Of a DNA stretch of 42,050 bases, positions 1 through 42,050 are shown one piece after another. Made by a program: the position numbers and the translations under genes. The number at the start of each line of letters is the position of its first letter. Positions within the stretch are counted from its first letter, which is position 1. The notes beneath the pieces were generated by a model that saw nothing but the letters and a program-made list of their open reading frames with translations, made no database searches and had not been told where the DNA came from. The stretch lies in the IMG/VR virus record IMGVR_UViG_2609459854_000002; one strand, 5' to 3'. The DNA comes from a virus (taxonomy: Duplodnaviria; Heunggongvirae; Uroviricota; Caudoviricetes).

Positions 1-477
1 ATGAAACTCATCAGTAATGATCTGCGCGATGGCGATAAGTTGCCGCATCGTCATGTCTTTAACGGCATGGGTTACGATGGCGATAATATTTCACCGCATC
101 TGGCGTGGGATGATGTTCCTGCGGGAACGAAAAGTTTTGTCGTCACCTGCTATGACCCGGATGCGCCAACCGGCTCCGGCTGGTGGCACTGGGTAGTTGT
201 TAACTTACCCGCTGATACCCGCGTATTACCGCAAGGGTTTGGCTCTGGTCTGGTAGCAATGCCAGACGGCGTTTTGCAGACGCGTACCGACTTTGGTAAA
301 ACCGGGTACGATGGCGCAGCACCGCCGAAAGGCGAAACTCATCGCTACATTTTTACCGTTCACGCGCTGGATATAGAACGTATTGATGTCGATGAAGGTG
401 CCAGCGGCGCGATGGTCGGGTTTAACGTTCATTTCCACTCTCTGGCAAGCGCCTCGATTACTGCGATGTTTAGTTAA
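1..477 (+). CDS. ybhB: YbhB-like PEBP-family protein (host gene flanking the prophage)
   Basis: Complete 158-codon ORF from the supplied track; translation recognised from memory as E. coli YbhB; ends about 90 bp before the att core. Confidence 0.85.
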   Translation: MKLISNDLRDGDKLPHRHVFNGMGYDGDNISPHLAWDDVPAGTKSFVVTCYDPDAPTGSGWWHWVVVNLPADTRVLPQGFGSGLVAMPDGVLQTRTDFGKTGYDGAAPPKGETHRYIFTVHALDIERIDVDEGASGAMVGFNVHFHSLASASITAMFS

Positions 478-567: not shown

Positions 568-582
568 TTAGTATAAAAAAGC
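568..582. repeat. attR core (P-O-B' junction); 15-bp lambda-type core
   Basis: Sequence TTAGTATAAAAAAGC on + strand (reverse complement GCTTTTTTATACTAA); flanked on host side by CTTGAGCG (lambda B' arm-like) and on phage side by sequence resembling the lambda P arm. Confidence 0.85.
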
Positions 583-728
583 TGTACGTGAAACATCAAA
601 AACCATTAATATCAATATGTTACAATATCTTTGGTCTAAAAAATAGACTGCAAAATGCGACAAAACACAACATACCCAGTCACTATGAATCAACTACTTA
701 GATAGTATTAGTGACCTGTAACAGAGCA

Positions 729-770
729 TTAGCGCAAGGCGATTTTTTGTCCTCTTGCGCTAATTTTTTG
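729..770 (+). terminator. Hairpin plus T-run, positionally equivalent to lambda tI / sib retroregulator
   Basis: 10-bp stem TTAGCGCAAG / CTTGCGCTAA (729..738 and 754..763) followed by TTTTTTG; lies about 150 nt beyond the att core on the strand that an int-sense transcript would read in the circular phage. Assignment as sib/tI is inference from position. Confidence 0.5.
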
Positions 771-855
771 TCAACACACTGGGTTAGCTGAATTTACAAC
801 CATGCTCAGTATCTCGATAAGCGCAGAGAAATGATGCAATGGTGGGCGGACTGGC

Positions 856-891
856 TTGATGAAAAGGTGGAGTGATCCACCTTTTCATCAA
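856..891. repeat. Perfect 16-bp inverted repeat with 4-nt loop
   Basis: TTGATGAAAAGGTGGA gtga TCCACCTTTTCATCAA read directly; sits between the tI-like hairpin and the 3' end of the acyltransferase gene; no clean U-run on either strand. Confidence 0.6.
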
Positions 892-938: not shown

Positions 939-2048
939 CTAACTACACTTCGCAGTTAATTTATCACCTCTAAACTTTCTCCAATAACCTCTTATTATTT
1001 TATTTGAAGGCACTTCTATAACCTTGAATGAGATTATTGATACAATAATAGAAACCAATAAAGAAAATGCTATATACATTAACATCTCACACAAATTATC
1101 AGTGTCAGGGTTTAATATCTTAGTTATTACCTGTATTATCATCCAATGGAAAATGTAAAATGAGAAAGAGGCTTCACCAAGCAAAACCATAAATCTATTT
1201 TTAAGTATCTTAGATAAGACGCCACCATTAAAAGCAAATGCAATAACTATAAACGCCATGCAAGGGATATATAGAACATCATATTTTATGTTCATATATG
1301 TGATATAGTTTGTTGCTACATATATTGTCAAAAACAATGACAACACCGATGCGATCTCAAGTATACTGCAAACAGTATAGTTGATTTTTACATCACTATT
1401 AATAAACACCCTACAGATCAGCATTCCTATAATGAAATCGCCAATTCTAAATGATGGATTTATATAAAACAACCAATGCTGTGATATAGCTGATGGTGGA
1501 TTAATTAAATAATAAAAATTAATCGCAAGCACAAATAATAGCACACAAGTTAAATGCTTTGTCTTTAGCCTTGTTAATAAGCAAAATGCAACGTAGAAAA
1601 ACATCTCACATGAGATGCTCCATGAAACGGAATTAAAGGAAAAGTAATAATCCTGTAATGGAATAAATGATTGTAGTAATAATATATTTGAAATAAGCAT
1701 TCCATTATTAATACCATCAATACCCTTACCATGCATAAATATTAAAATAAAACAAATAAGCGCCACTATATGCACAGGGAATATTCTTGCAATCCTGTAT
1801 ACAATAAAATCTTTATTGCTAAATCTCTCTTTTTTTATATGATTTGTGAAGCTATAGTTTATAATGAAACCTGAAAGAATGTAGAAAAACGTTACACCTA
1901 TGTAACCGTTAAAAAAATACTTTGCCGCAGTATTAAACATACCAATAGATGATTGAGATAATAACCCAAGGTGACTAACGAAAACACCAAGGGCTGCAAA
2001 CATTCTCAACGATGTAAGACTTTGAATTATATTGCCTTTATTATTCAT
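939..2048 (-). CDS. Acyltransferase family 3 integral membrane protein (O-antigen acetylase-like lysogenic conversion candidate)
   Basis: 369-aa ORF, visibly AT-rich relative to neighbours; many hydrophobic segments; N-terminal region LTSLRMFAALGVFVSHL resembles the conserved start of acyltransferase-3 (Oac-like) proteins. Family call from memory. Confidence 0.7.
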   Translation of the reverse strand: MNNKGNIIQSLTSLRMFAALGVFVSHLGLLSQSSIGMFNTAAKYFFNGYIGVTFFYILSGFIINYSFTNHIKKERFSNKDFIVYRIARIFPVHIVALICFILIFMHGKGIDGINNGMLISNILLLQSFIPLQDYYFSFNSVSWSISCEMFFYVAFCLLTRLKTKHLTCVLLFVLAINFYYLINPPSAISQHWLFYINPSFRIGDFIIGMLICRVFINSDVKINYTVCSILEIASVLSLFLTIYVATNYITYMNIKYDVLYIPCMAFIVIAFAFNGGVLSKILKNRFMVLLGEASFSFYIFHWMIIQVITKILNPDTDNLCEMLMYIAFSLLVSIIVSIISFKVIEVPSNKIIRGYWRKFRGDKLTAKCS

Positions 2049-27324: not shown

Positions 27325-27497
27325 TTCCTCGCACGATGTCTTAGCCACCGGATATCCCACAGGTGAGCCGTGTAGTTGAAGGTTTTTACGTCAGATTCTT
27401 TTGGGATTGGCTTGCGTTTATTTCTGGAGCGTTTCGTTGGAAGGTATTTGCAGTTTTCGCAGATGATATCGGTGAAACTTCGTCGCTGTCGCCTCAT
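27321..27497 (-). CDS. ninE: NinE-like protein
   Basis: [58 protein letters not shown] matches lambda NinE as recalled. Confidence 0.7.
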
Positions 27498-31128: not shown

Positions 31129-31407
31129 TCAGGCCTCGAAGAATTCGCCGTTCTTCGGGGCTTTTTCTTTTGTCAGCATTCTGGCTACTTTCTTAGCCAG
31201 CTCCGCCAACTCCTCGTCTTCAACACCCCATTCAAGAACAGCCAGAAGCATTCCCATTTTTGGGATGAAGCTGTCTTTCCATCGAGAAATTTGCGATTCA
31301 TTAATCCCTAACGCGTCGGCAACCTTTCGCTGACCACGTACAGCAATTCGATTCAGGATGTTGCTTGTAATTGCATTCGCTTTCTTGCGAGTACTTGTAA
31401 GTTGCAT
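31129..31407 (-). CDS. CII-like transcriptional activator
   Basis: Contains ...SQISRWKDSFIPKMGMLLAVLEWGVEDEELAELAKKVARML... matching the lambda CII helix-turn-helix and C-terminal region as recalled; start at internal ATG. Confidence 0.7.
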   Translation of the reverse strand: MQLTSTRKKANAITSNILNRIAVRGQRKVADALGINESQISRWKDSFIPKMGMLLAVLEWGVEDEELAELAKKVARMLTKEKAPKNGEFFEA

Positions 31408-31515
31408 ATGTAAGTATTTCCTTAACAAATAAGAAGTTATGCGCATCAACTTATGCGCGTTGTATTCCCGCATTTCGGCGGGAATGAGGACCATGACTGT
31501 TAAAGAGCAATTTGC

Positions 31516-31781: not shown

Positions 31782-32432
31782 ATGAAAACTCAATTGATGG
31801 GAGAGCGCATTCGCGCTCGGAGAAAAGAACTCAAGATCAGGCAGGCCGCACTTGGAAAGATGGTCGGCGTGTCTAATGTTGCCATATCTCAGTGGGAACG
31901 CTCTGAGACAGAGCCAAATGGAGAGAATCTTCTCGCCCTGGCTAATGCGTTGAAGTGTTCCCCTGACTATCTGATGAAAGGAGAGGAAAGTCTTTCAAAC
32001 ATTGCCTATCACAGTAGGCATGATCCAAGAGGGTCATACCCTCTGATTAGCTGGGTGAGCGCAGGATGCTGGATGGAAGCTGTAGAACCATATCATAAGC
32101 GTGCAATAGATAACTGGTACGATACAACCGTAGACTGTTCAGAAGATTCGTTTTGGTTGGACGTGAAGGGAGACTCAATGACGGCTCCGGCCGGTCTCAG
32201 TATCCCTGAAGGAATGATAATACTCGTCGATCCTGAAGTAGAGCCGCGTAACGGGAAACTGGTAGTTGCAAAGCTCGAAGGAGAAAACGAGGCAACTTTC
32301 AAGAAGTTAGTTATTGATGCAGGCAGGAAGTTTCTAAAACCACTTAACCCACAATATCCGATGATCGAGATCAACGGAAACTGCAAAATCATCGGCGTAG
32401 TTGTCGATGCAAAACTAGCAAACCTTCCATAA
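31782..32432 (+). CDS. c2: Prophage repressor (P22 C2-like, LexA-type autocleaving)
   Basis: 216 aa; N-terminal HTH and C-terminal ...GDSMTAPAGLSIPEGMIILVDPEVEPRNGKLVVAKLEGENEATFKKL... closely match P22 C2 as recalled. Confidence 0.9.
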   Translation: MKTQLMGERIRARRKELKIRQAALGKMVGVSNVAISQWERSETEPNGENLLALANALKCSPDYLMKGEESLSNIAYHSRHDPRGSYPLISWVSAGCWMEAVEPYHKRAIDNWYDTTVDCSEDSFWLDVKGDSMTAPAGLSIPEGMIILVDPEVEPRNGKLVVAKLEGENEATFKKLVIDAGRKFLKPLNPQYPMIEINGNCKIIGVVVDAKLANLP

Positions 32433-32953: not shown

Positions 32954-33259
32954 ATGACAGTAGTCATTACATATCTGGCTGACGATAACGCCAGAAATCG
33001 CCGCAGAGCACGCAGACAGGCTCAACGTGAACAGGCAATGCAAGAGCAGCGACTGGCGCGAAAAATTGCGCTAAAGCTCTCTGGTTGCGTCAGAGCAGAT
33101 AAAGCAGCATCACTCGGAAGCCTTCGCTGCAAGAAGGCAGAAGAAGTCGAGCGTAAACAGAACCGTATTTACTACCGCAAGCCACGCAGTGAAATGGGGG
33201 TGACTTGTGTTGGCCGCCAGAAGCAACGCGGAAAATCAATTCCAGCTTATTACGATTGA
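32954..33259 (+). CDS. N-like transcription antiterminator
   Basis: 101 aa with arginine-rich N-terminal motif (NARNRRRARRQAQREQ); C-terminal half resembles phage 21 N as recalled; first gene downstream of candidate pL/nutL. Confidence 0.65.
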   Translation: MTVVITYLADDNARNRRRARRQAQREQAMQEQRLARKIALKLSGCVRADKAASLGSLRCKKAEEVERKQNRIYYRKPRSEMGVTCVGRQKQRGKSIPAYYD

Positions 33260-39158: not shown

Positions 39159-39326
39159 ATGCACTTCCGAGTCACAGGTGAATGGAATGGAGAACCATTC
39201 AACAGAGTTATCGAAGCAGAGGACATCAACGACTGCTATGACCACTGGATGATATGGGCGCAGATAGCACATGCAGACGTAACCAACATTCGAATTGAAG
39301 AACTGAAAGAACACCAATCCGCCTGA
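39159..39326 (+). CDS. Small protein in the position of lambda orf55 (tentative)
   Basis: 55-codon ORF just upstream of xis followed by hairpin CCGCC tgat GGCGG + TTTTTTATT (39313..39340); homology not verified. Confidence 0.4.
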   Translation: MHFRVTGEWNGEPFNRVIEAEDINDCYDHWMIWAQIAHADVTNIRIEELKEHQSA

Positions 39327-39365
39327 TGGCGGTTTTTTATTGCGTGTAATTGCGGAGACTTTGCG

Positions 39366-39584
39366 ATGTACTTGACACTTCAGGAGTGGAACGCACGCCA
39401 GCGACGTCCAAGAAGCCTTGAAACAGTTCGTCGATGGGTACGCGAGTGCAAGATATTCCCTCCTCCGGTTAAGGATGGAAGAGAGTATCTGTTCCACGAA
39501 TCAGCGGTAAAGGTTGACTTAAATCGACCAGTAACAGGTAGCCTTTTGAAGAGGATCAGAAATGGGAAGAAGGCGAAGTCATGA
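39366..39584 (+). CDS. xis: Excisionase
   Basis: MYLTLQEWNARQRRPRSLETVRRWVRECKIFPPPVKDGREYLFHESAVKVDLNRPVTGSLLKRIRNGKKAKS, essentially lambda Xis as recalled. Confidence 0.9.
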   Translation: MYLTLQEWNARQRRPRSLETVRRWVRECKIFPPPVKDGREYLFHESAVKVDLNRPVTGSLLKRIRNGKKAKS

Positions 39585-40632
39585 GCGCCGGGATTTACCC
39601 CCTAACCTTTATATAAGAAACAATGGATATTACTGCTACAGGGACCCAAGGACGGGTAAAGAGTTCGGATTAGGCAGAGACAGGAGGATAGCAATTACTG
39701 AAGCAATACAGGCAAACATTGAGTTATTTTCAGGACACAAACACAAGCCTCTGACAGCAAGAATCAACAGTGATAATTCTGTTACGCTACATTCATGGCT
39801 TGATCGCTACGAAAAAATACTCGCCAGCAGAGGAATCAAGCAGAAGACACTCATAAATTACATGAGCAAAATTAAAGCAATAAGGAGGGGTCTGCCTGAT
39901 GCTCCACTTGAAGACATCACCACAAAAGAAATTGCGGCAATGCTTAATGGATACATAGACGAGGGCAAGGCGGCATCAGCCAAGTTAATCAGATCAACAC
40001 TGAGCGATGCATTCCGAGAGGCAATAGCTGAAGGCCATATAACAACAAACCCGGTCGCTGCCACTCGCGCAGCAAAATCAGAGGTAAGGAGATCAAGGCT
40101 TACGGCTGACGAATACCTGAAAATTTATCAAGCAGCAGAATCATCACCATGTTGGCTAAGACTTGCAATGGAACTGGCTGTTGTTACCGGGCAGAGAGTT
40201 GGTGATTTATGCGAAATGAAGTGGTCTGATATCGTAGATGGATATCTTTATGTCGAGCAAAGCAAAACAGGCGTAAAAATTGCCATCCCAACAGCATTGC
40301 ATGTTGATGCTCTCGGAATATCAATGAAGGAAACACTTGATAAATGCAAAGAGATTCTTGGCGGAGAAACCATAATTGCATCTACTCGTCGCGAACCGCT
40401 TTCATCCGGCACAGTATCAAGGTATTTTATGCGCGCACGAAAAGCATCAGGTCTTTCCTTCGAAGGGGATCCGCCTACCTTTCACGAGTTGCGCAGTTTG
40501 TCTGCAAGACTCTATGAGAAGCAGATAAGCGATAAGTTTGCTCAACATCTTCTCGGGCATAAGTCGGACACCATGGCATCACAGTATCGTGATGACAGAG
40601 GCAGGGAGTGGGACAAAATTGAAATCAAATAA
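39562..40632 (+). CDS. int: Tyrosine integrase (lambda Int-like)
   Basis: 356 aa, same length as lambda Int; N-terminus MGRRRSHERRDLPPNLYIRNNGYYCYRDPRTGKEFGLGRDRRIAITEAIQAN matches as recalled; overlaps xis as in lambda. Confidence 0.95.
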   Translation: MGRRRSHERRDLPPNLYIRNNGYYCYRDPRTGKEFGLGRDRRIAITEAIQANIELFSGHKHKPLTARINSDNSVTLHSWLDRYEKILASRGIKQKTLINYMSKIKAIRRGLPDAPLEDITTKEIAAMLNGYIDEGKAASAKLIRSTLSDAFREAIAEGHITTNPVAATRAAKSEVRRSRLTADEYLKIYQAAESSPCWLRLAMELAVVTGQRVGDLCEMKWSDIVDGYLYVEQSKTGVKIAIPTALHVDALGISMKETLDKCKEILGGETIIASTRREPLSSGTVSRYFMRARKASGLSFEGDPPTFHELRSLSARLYEKQISDKFAQHLLGHKSDTMASQYRDDRGREWDKIEIK

Positions 40633-40705
40633 TGATTTTATTTTGACTGATAGTGACCTGTTCGTTGCAACAAATTGATAAGCAATGCTTTTTTATAATA
40701 CCAAC

Positions 40706-40720
40706 TTAGTATAAAAAAGC
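40706..40720. repeat. attL core (B-O-P' junction); 15-bp lambda-type core
   Basis: TTAGTATAAAAAAGC on + strand, identical to the copy at 568..582; phage side (40633..40705) resembles the lambda P' arm, host side continues AGGCTTCA (lambda B arm-like). Confidence 0.85.
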
Positions 40721-40766
40721 AGGCTTCAACGGATTCATTTTTCTATTTCATAGCCCGGAGCAACCT

Positions 40767-42050
40767 GTGAACACATTTTCAGTTTCCCGTCTGGCGCTGG
40801 CATTGGCTTTTGGCGTGACGCTGACCGCCTGTAGCTCAACCCCGCCCGATCAACGTCCTTCTGATCAAACCGCGCCTGGTACCTCTTCTCGCCCGATTCT
40901 GTCGGCAAAAGAAGCGCAGAATTTCGATGCTCAACACTATTTTGCATCCCTGACACCAGGTGCTGCAGCGTGGAATCCTTCCCCGATTACCCTGCCTGCG
41001 CAACCTGACTTTGTTGTCGGCCCGGCGGGCACTCAAGGTGTAACGCATACCACGATTCAGGCGGCGGTAGATGCGGCAATTATCAAGCGTACCAACAAGC
41101 GCCAGTATATTGCCGTGATGCCTGGTGAGTATCAGGGAACGGTATATGTCCCTGCCGCTCCGGGTGGAATTACTCTGTACGGTACAGGTGAAAAACCGAT
41201 TGATGTGAAGATTGGGCTTTCCCTTGATGGTGGCATGAGCCCTGCCGACTGGCGTCACGACGTCAACCCGCGCGGCAAATATATGCCAGGTAAACCAGCG
41301 TGGTATATGTACGATAGCTGCCAGAGCAAACGCAGCGACAGTATCGGTGTTCTCTGCTCTGCGGTCTTCTGGTCACAAAACAATGGCCTGCAACTGCAAA
41401 ATCTGACCATCGAAAACACGCTGGGCGATAGCGTAGATGCAGGTAACCATCCGGCGGTGGCACTGCGTACTGATGGTGACCAGGTACAGATTAACAACGT
41501 TAACATTCTCGGTCGTCAGAACACCTTCTTTGTCACCAACAGCGGTGTGCAGAACCGTCTGGAAACCAACCGTCAGCCGCGTACGCTGGTGACCAACAGC
41601 TACATTGAAGGGGATGTGGATATCGTTTCTGGTCGCGGCGCAGTGGTGTTCGATAACACCGAATTCCGCGTGGTGAACTCACGTACTCAGCAAGAAGCGT
41701 ATGTGTTTGCACCGGCTACGCTGTCCAACATTTACTACGGTTTCCTCGCCGTAAACAGCCGTTTCAATGCTTTCGGTGATGGTGTGGCGCAACTGGGCCG
41801 CTCGCTGGATGTTGATGCCAATACCAACGGTCAGGTGGTGATCCGTGATAGCGCCATCAACGAAGGTTTTAACACGGCTAAACCGTGGGCCGATGCGGTG
41901 ATCTCTAATCGTCCGTTTGCGGGTAATACCGGCAGCGTAGATGATAACGACGAAATACAGCGCAATCTGAATGACACTAACTACAACCGCATGTGGGAAT
42001 ACAATAACCGCGGCGTGGGTAGTAAAGTGGTTGCAGAGGCGAAGAAGTAA
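40767..42050 (+). CDS. ybhC: YbhC-like pectinesterase-family lipoprotein (host gene flanking the prophage)
   Basis: 427-codon ORF beginning at GTG with lipoprotein signal (…LALAFGVTLTACSS…); recognised from memory as E. coli YbhC; complete, ends at window end. Confidence 0.85.
   Translation: MNTFSVSRLALALAFGVTLTACSSTPPDQRPSDQTAPGTSSRPILSAKEAQNFDAQHYFASLTPGAAAWNPSPITLPAQPDFVVGPAGTQGVTHTTIQAAVDAAIIKRTNKRQYIAVMPGEYQGTVYVPAAPGGITLYGTGEKPIDVKIGLSLDGGMSPADWRHDVNPRGKYMPGKPAWYMYDSCQSKRSDSIGVLCSAVFWSQNNGLQLQNLTIENTLGDSVDAGNHPAVALRTDGDQVQINNVNILGRQNTFFVTNSGVQNRLETNRQPRTLVTNSYIEGDVDIVSGRGAVVFDNTEFRVVNSRTQQEAYVFAPATLSNIYYGFLAVNSRFNAFGDGVAQLGRSLDVDANTNGQVVIRDSAINEGFNTAKPWADAVISNRPFAGNTGSVDDNDEIQRNLNDTNYNRMWEYNNRGVGSKVVAEAKK

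Follow-up and report, generated by a model that had tools for sequence, protein, structure and literature searches.

Retroregulation of the integrase gene by the sib/tI element of bacteriophage lambda has been summarised in PMC5300877 and PMC2951348. A second class of described elements relevant here is that of the two-way terminators found between convergent genes, for example in phage TL-2011b, in which a symmetric stem shared by both strands is preceded by an A-run on its 5' side and followed by a T-run on its 3' side. We analysed a stretch of viral DNA of 42,050 nt (hereafter the window, by which the whole stretch is meant) in which two hairpins lie close together in the phage arm beside attR, and compared each of them with these systems. 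We consider it highly probable that they are two adjacent but unrelated elements, namely a sib/tI site (hairpin 1; 721..771, + strand) and the hairpin of a convergent intS/acyltransferase junction that came from an Sf6/HK620-type phage (hairpin 2; 856..891).

A P22-like prophage at the lambda attachment site

The lambda O core (GCTTTTTTATACTAA) occurs exactly twice in the window, as exact - strand matches at 568..582 and 40706..40720, against a chance expectation of 0.01, and the sequence aligned with 568-582 is the att core in the annotation of HK97 and 434. Outside the first core lies ybhB (window 1..477), a gene of the PBP family named here from matching records, in which it appears as 'kinase inhibitor', and beyond the second core runs an unannotated host ORF (40767..42050). 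The int gene (39562..40632, +) is located just inside the second core and encodes the Pfam lambda arm-binding and catalytic domains, its product being identical to lambda Int at 354 of 356 positions (99%). It is preceded by xis (39366..39584, +), assigned by a PHROG excisionase match. Because there are two cores, with xis and int inside the second and a host ORF beyond it, the prophage is whole and 568-582 is attR, where the host side with ybhB meets the phage P arm, while 40706..40720 is attL, the copy with which it fuses on excision. The same arrangement, with ybhB outside the first core and int and xis inside the second, supports the position that a first-pass annotation of this DNA had given to attR. 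The structural genes are P22-like, and a tailspike gene with a P22 head-binding domain adjoins an Acyl_transf_3 gene. The window is a complete P22-like prophage inserted at the lambda attachment site. A perfect 12-bp inverted repeat (TGCTTTTTTATA…TATAAAAAAGCA) was also observed at 40686-40721, across the attL core and the P' arm.

The resemblance to lambda extends to the remainder of the integration module. The P arm of a lambda-type attP (583..720) could be aligned without gaps to lambda, HK97, 434, Huey, ev099 and 720R6, and its homologue in lambda carries the annotated Int arm-type sites int 1 and int 2. Upstream of xis, a terminator-like hairpin (39321-39338, +) is followed by a CII box and pI promoter sequence (TTGCGTGTAATTGCG…; 39340-39368, +) identical to that of lambda, and the positions of 434 aligned with 39321..39368 are annotated as terminator, pI promoter and CII site. 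PHROG searches identified in the control region a CII-like activator (31129..31494, -), a repressor (31782..32432, +) and a Cro-like protein. An N-like antiterminator gene (32954..33259, +; PHROG 271 'anti-termination protein N-like', E = 1.7e-36) heads the early-left operon on the + strand, at the end of which xis-int is found. As far as can be read from the sequence, two routes to int expression are present, one CII-dependent from pI, a predicted promoter, and the other N-antiterminated from pL. This P22-like prophage thus appears to carry a complete lambda-type integration module, including the post-transcriptional control of int.

Make-up and origin of the palindrome at 856..891

Hairpin 2 is a perfect palindrome whose two 16-nt arms (856-871 and 876-891) are 100% complementary and enclose a loop of 4 nt, just as the first-pass annotation had described it. 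Its fold has a predicted energy of -26.4 kcal/mol on the + strand and -24.2 kcal/mol on the - strand, with z scores of about -6 to -7, and of the perfect inverted repeats of hairpin type in the window it has the longest arms. Of 100 composition-preserving block shuffles, 97 gave a longest perfect arm of 8-11 bp, 1 gave 13 bp and 2 contained no perfect arm of 8 bp or more; a 16-bp palindrome is therefore far beyond chance. The layout is nested and is the same on both strands, A4-GGTGGA-loop-TCCACC-T4 with six further pairs outside, each strand reading ...CCACCUUUUCAUC. The inner stem GGUGGA/UCCACC, flanked by A4 and U4, contributes -8 to -9 kcal/mol and is followed on both strands by the tail UUUUCAUC. 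The embedded U-tract is short (UUUU and then CAUC) and becomes paired in the full 16-bp fold, and a simple consensus terminator scan did not call hairpin 2. The earlier statement that there is no U-run on either strand is correct if all 16 bp are counted as stem, but it leaves out this embedded U4 tract.

Most of the palindrome derives from intS, the gene of the integrase type found at argW in CPS-53/KplE1, Sf6 and HK620. The left arm, the loop and the first 8 nt of the right arm (856-883) correspond to the end of the IntS coding sequence with its TGA stop (873-875), which sits in the loop, and a short ancestral hairpin is contained within 856-883. This intS DNA is the last part of a vestigial 3' end of the gene (792..875, +), where there is no complete integrase ORF but only 27 codons (IYNHAQYLDKRREMMQWWADWLDEKVE) followed by the TGA. 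The remnant peptide is identical at 27 of 27 positions to residues 359-385 of IntS from K-12 and from strain GPEC349, and the remnant DNA matches intS in hundreds of genomes as well as the int genes of HK620, Sf6 and CUS-3, and can be aligned with intact intS loci up to and including the stop codon. Directly upstream of the remnant there is an in-frame stop (789-791), before which the DNA belongs to the sib module and is unrelated to intS; the joint (772..791) runs …GTCAACACACTGGGTTAGCTGA|ATTTACAAC…. Two further features had been missed in the first-pass annotation. One is the vestigial intS itself, whose last codons and stop overlap the palindrome, and the other is that the palindrome is a mosaic junction, with a homology breakpoint and a drop in GC content at 884. 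Intact intS loci (K-12 and SJ3) match the window to ~883 and then diverge, and they contain only a short AAGGTGG…CCACCTT hairpin (-7 to -10 kcal/mol), while positions 884-891 are specific to the acyltransferase cassette. At 884 the GC content falls from 0.47 in the remnant to 0.22 in the flank, with 0.30 in the acyltransferase gene. Judged from these homologies, the palindrome is a gene remnant plus a cassette boundary rather than an independent or new element.

The joint between sib and the 84-nt intS remnant is common to phages of differing attachment specificity. It is carried by 434, Huey, ev099 and 720R6, and also by the torT-site prophages L010, L011 and L024 and by Salmonella phage 29485, and a stretch across the joint was recovered at 80% coverage or more from 758 of the 5426 complete E. 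coli genomes. The labels given by annotators to the remnant region vary and include 'hypothetical protein', 'mobile element protein' and 'transposase'. In lambda (NC_001416), a 38-nt segment of the b region (AGCACAAAGCCTCGCAATCCAGTGCAAAGCTTTGTGTG; ~27407-27444) is located directly past sib/tI. This segment is 95% identical to positions 2607-2644 of the K-12 locus (L008), ~23 nt downstream of the intS stop, and it forms a hairpin repeat (CACAAAGC…GCTTTGTG); the window does not contain it. In a BL21(DE3)-derived record, an 'antisense RNA' is annotated over the area of the lambda 38-nt segment.

On its other side, the palindrome faces the acyltransferase gene (939..2048, -; 369 aa; Acyl_transf_3, PF01757, E = 1.5e-26), which converges on the intS remnant and has its stop codon 47 nt from the palindrome. 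Its product is 82% identical to the TL-2011b protein annotated as 'O-acetyltransferase', and the cassette has a GC content of 29.7%, compared with 46.9% for the whole window. Between the stop codon of the tailspike gene and the start of the acyltransferase gene (2049-2118) lie the inverted repeat CTGCCGG-N14-CCGGCAG (about 2052-2079) and, on the - strand, a TTGACA hexamer; they may mark where the late operon ends and a promoter belonging to the cassette. Sf6 was considered as a model for the junction and discarded, its oac gene being transcribed in the same direction as int, with its own promoter and terminator, in a different arrangement.

Among the 5426 complete E. coli genomes only 6 have the acyltransferase flank, which was also found in 2 viral contigs. 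Both contigs with the palindrome carry the same acyltransferase, and the palindrome gave 0 matches in a one-genome-per-species collection; it is thus inseparable from the cassette. In all the cassette copies examined (the 6 E. coli genomes and the 2 viral contigs), which are 98-99% identical to one another, the palindrome is perfect. In 3 genomes and 1 contig, intS is full-length, sits at argW and converges on the acyltransferase and tailspike genes, whereas only an intS remnant of 84-132 nt is left in the window (lambda site), in Z1323 and contig L024 (torT) and in WP8 (pao region). This cassette, although rare, is seen behind at least four different modules or sites of integration (argW/intS, the lambda site, torT and the pao region). 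Since the copies with an intact intS have the palindrome too, the palindrome is older than the replacement of the integrase, and the convergence of argW intS on the acyltransferase gene is the native arrangement. We propose that 856..891 is the intergenic hairpin of a convergent intS/acyltransferase junction whose source was an Sf6/HK620-type, argW-integrating phage, and that a lambda-type att-int-sib module replaced all of intS except for its last 27 codons, the hairpin being inherited.

The palindrome could instead be a functionless scar of recombination, produced where the end of intS meets the AT-rich flank of the cassette and persisting through recent divergence, an explanation that we regard as unlikely but worth taking seriously. 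The homology breakpoint and the GC drop do fall inside the right arm, the palindrome is tied to one rare cassette (6/5426 genomes, 2 viral contigs and none in the one-per-species collection) and all its copies are 98-99% identical. As the palindrome always accompanies this single cassette, its conservation could reflect linkage in recently diverged DNA, and, the left arm being constrained by coding in the intact-intS loci, only the 8 outer bases of the right arm are informative about selection on pairing. However, the chance odds that eight further bases complement the IntS coding end are about 1.5e-5, and the result has the exact A-tract, stem and U-tract layout of a two-way terminator. Moreover, the orthologous gene of TL-2011b possesses an independent palindrome at the same position: ~40 nt past the O-acetyltransferase stop there is an unrelated, perfect 15-bp palindrome (AAACAGGCAACCCCA-N6-TGGGGTTGCCTGTTT) followed by TTTTCAAT. 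That two unrelated palindromes of the same design occupy the same place in the window and in TL-2011b favours a role as a terminator or in the 3' end of the transcript.

A more speculative proposal, to which we give little credence, concerns the way in which the junction arose. A templated mutation (of the quasi-palindrome or template-switch kind) might have copied the complement of the IntS end into the spacer, with sib and the 84-nt remnant serving as recombination linkers. If so, a weak 5-7 bp hairpin would have been turned into a strong two-way terminator insulating the converting acyltransferase gene, and recombination at the linkers would swap att/int specificity (lambda, torT, pao) on one side and cargo cassettes on the other. 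The presence of the joint in 758/5426 E. coli genomes and the 38-nt piece of intS-downstream sequence beside sib in lambda are consistent with the linker part of the proposal. The sequence after the right arm is weakly similar to that downstream of intS, at about 7/14 positions as read from the alignment.

Hairpin 1 and the lambda sib/tI element

An inverted-repeat search placed the arms of hairpin 1 at 721-738 and 754-771. The + strand RNA of 720-780 folds with an energy of -24.1 kcal/mol (z = -6.1), and none of 200 shuffled sequences folded as well. The fold comprises a main stem (728-739/753-764), an apical stem (741-743/749-751) and a T-run (764-769), so that the hairpin plus T-run previously noted at 729..770 was right to within 1-2 nt according to both the fold and the repeat arms. 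In addition, a basal extension pairs 721-726 (ACAGAG) with 766-771 (UUUUGU), which is possible only in RNA transcribed beyond the T-run. In terms of the predicted fold, the main stem and T-run would be the tI terminator, and the basal extension would complete a long stem of the RNase III type.

The alignment with lambda sib/tI that had been suggested as a check, carried outward from the att core, had no gaps and revealed 3 differences across the hairpin, all at unpaired positions: T is replaced by C twice at a pyrimidine-pyrimidine 1x1 mismatch, and the loop is longer by one T. The region is colinear and nearly identical in lambda, HK97, 434, HK022, phi80, Huey, ev099, 720R6 and others. The HK97 record labels the matching sequence 'sib retroregulation site' and the HK022 record 'sib transcription processing site'; in 434 and O276 it bears the label 'terminator'. 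The same fold was obtained for 16 sib copies spanning several attachment specificities and sources (lambda, HK022/torT, phi80, PPompW, Stx1a phages, BP-4795 and a Salmonella phage), with -24.7 kcal/mol for the window and -24.3 kcal/mol for lambda. In the 15 copies other than PPompW, the differences affected only unpaired positions of the fold (the loop, the pyrimidine-pyrimidine 1x1 mismatch and a bulge in BP-4795); the 16 copies are too alike for compensatory base changes, and covariation gives no independent proof of the structure. In the sib copy of the PPompW prophages, a G in the 3' arm of the stem is replaced by A and the T-run is weakened, and the predicted stability is -14.7 kcal/mol compared to about -24 kcal/mol in the others. 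This copy may be decaying, and not all copies need be functional. An Rfam scan of 400-1100 (E up to 10) returned only generic miRNA-precursor hairpin matches far below the gathering scores, with no curated family and no match corresponding to a phage sib model.

The position of hairpin 1 relative to int also agrees with that in lambda. In the prophage, int (+ strand) is cut off from sib, and the two are linked only across the joined att of the circular or infecting phage. Once the phage DNA has been excised as a circle, hairpin 1 has its stem beginning 235 nt past the int stop, compared with about 234 nt in lambda. The topology foreseen in the first-pass annotation, in which int-sense RNA meets the hairpin after circularisation, is therefore the one found, with int on the + strand and reaching the hairpin only after excision. 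Its proposal that 729..770 is the equivalent of sib/tI is likewise borne out by direct homology, the nearly identical sequence of lambda, HK97, HK022 and 434 being equally far from the att core and from the stop of int. From sequence, fold and position, hairpin 1 is the ortholog of lambda sib/tI, every sequence-level feature of which was found. It is an element already known, of textbook standing and annotated as sib in related phages.

According to the lambda model, the basal stem separates the pI transcripts terminated at tI from the antiterminated pL transcripts, which are RNase III substrates. Here, 721..771 is the sib/tI of a lambda-type xis-int-att module housed in a P22-like prophage. 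In the prophage state sib is severed from int, and excision or infection brings it to 235 nt downstream of the gene. By analogy, CII-activated pI transcripts would end at the tI hairpin and T-run and yield a stable int mRNA, while N-antiterminated pL transcripts would pass tI and gain UUUUGU, which pairs with ACAGAG to form the long stem. Cleavage of this stem by RNase III would lead to decay of the int mRNA from its 3' end, and the N-like antiterminator (32954..33259) would be needed for the read-through of tI. We infer the processing of int RNA by RNase III from lambda, whereas the sequence, the position and the partner parts were seen directly.

It seems to us very improbable that hairpin 1 is only a terminator or insulator that stops read-through from ybhB and ends the pI-int RNA, with RNase III retroregulation having been lost. 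It is true that ybhB is the sole upstream + strand gene in the prophage state and that the 3 differences from lambda may bear on function. Nevertheless, those differences are unpaired, ACAGAG can still pair with UUUUGU in read-through RNA, and the prophage has an N-like antiterminator as well as the pI/CII box and a near-lambda Int (354/356).

Proposed role of hairpin 2 and comparison with known systems

With hairpin 2 taken as the intergenic hairpin of the convergent intS/acyltransferase junction, it would end the acyltransferase transcript and so block an antisense run through sib, attR and ybhB. Most likely it serves as a two-way intrinsic terminator or as a protective hairpin at the 3' end, a function suggested by its layout and location. 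The 3'-end role for the acyltransferase mRNA put forward previously is plausible in this respect and gains indirect support from the TL-2011b palindrome. That the perfect 16-bp inverted repeat with its 4-bp spacer is instead an operator bound by a dimeric phage or host protein, in line with the protein-binding site suggested earlier, is hardly credible, since a half-site search of the 42-kb prophage with 3 mismatches allowed found only the two arms and nothing elsewhere in the window, half of it is IntS coding sequence and conserved for that reason, the outer arm is missing from related loci whether their intS is intact or vestigial, and there is no regulator gene linked to it. The two hairpins matter little beyond annotation. 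The striking palindrome is accounted for by a gene remnant and a cassette boundary, and the remnant and the joint can be used as markers for following how integration modules, and cassettes that modify the O antigen, pass between lambdoid and P22-like phages.

With lambda sib/tI, the window shares the sequence (except at 3 unpaired positions), the fold and the position relative to the att core and the int stop, as well as the partners Int, Xis, the pI/CII box and an N-type antiterminator. It differs in its host phage, which is a P22-like podovirus (with a P22 head-binding tailspike), and in what lies beyond sib, which is the b region in lambda and an intS remnant with an acyltransferase cassette in the window. 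With the 3' end of intS in CPS-53/KplE1, Sf6, HK620 and CUS-3, the window shares identical last 27 codons and TGA, and intS loci and window have in common the inner hairpin AAGGTGG…CCACCTT. Unlike in intact intS, the gene in the window is cut down to 27 codons, and the hairpin of 5-7 bp has grown to a perfect 16 bp by means of cassette sequence. Hairpin 2 and the palindrome of the TL-2011b type are both found ~40-47 nt past the acyltransferase stop, and in both of them each strand reads as a stem and then UUUU. In contrast to the two-way terminator class, hairpin 2 has a U-tract of 4 nt followed by CAUC and enclosed by six outer base pairs, half of its stem is protein-coding wherever intS is intact, and its termination activity is a prediction. 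Hairpin 2 is a lineage-specific, extended form of the intS stop-codon hairpin, an ordinary element that fits the known class of two-way terminators.
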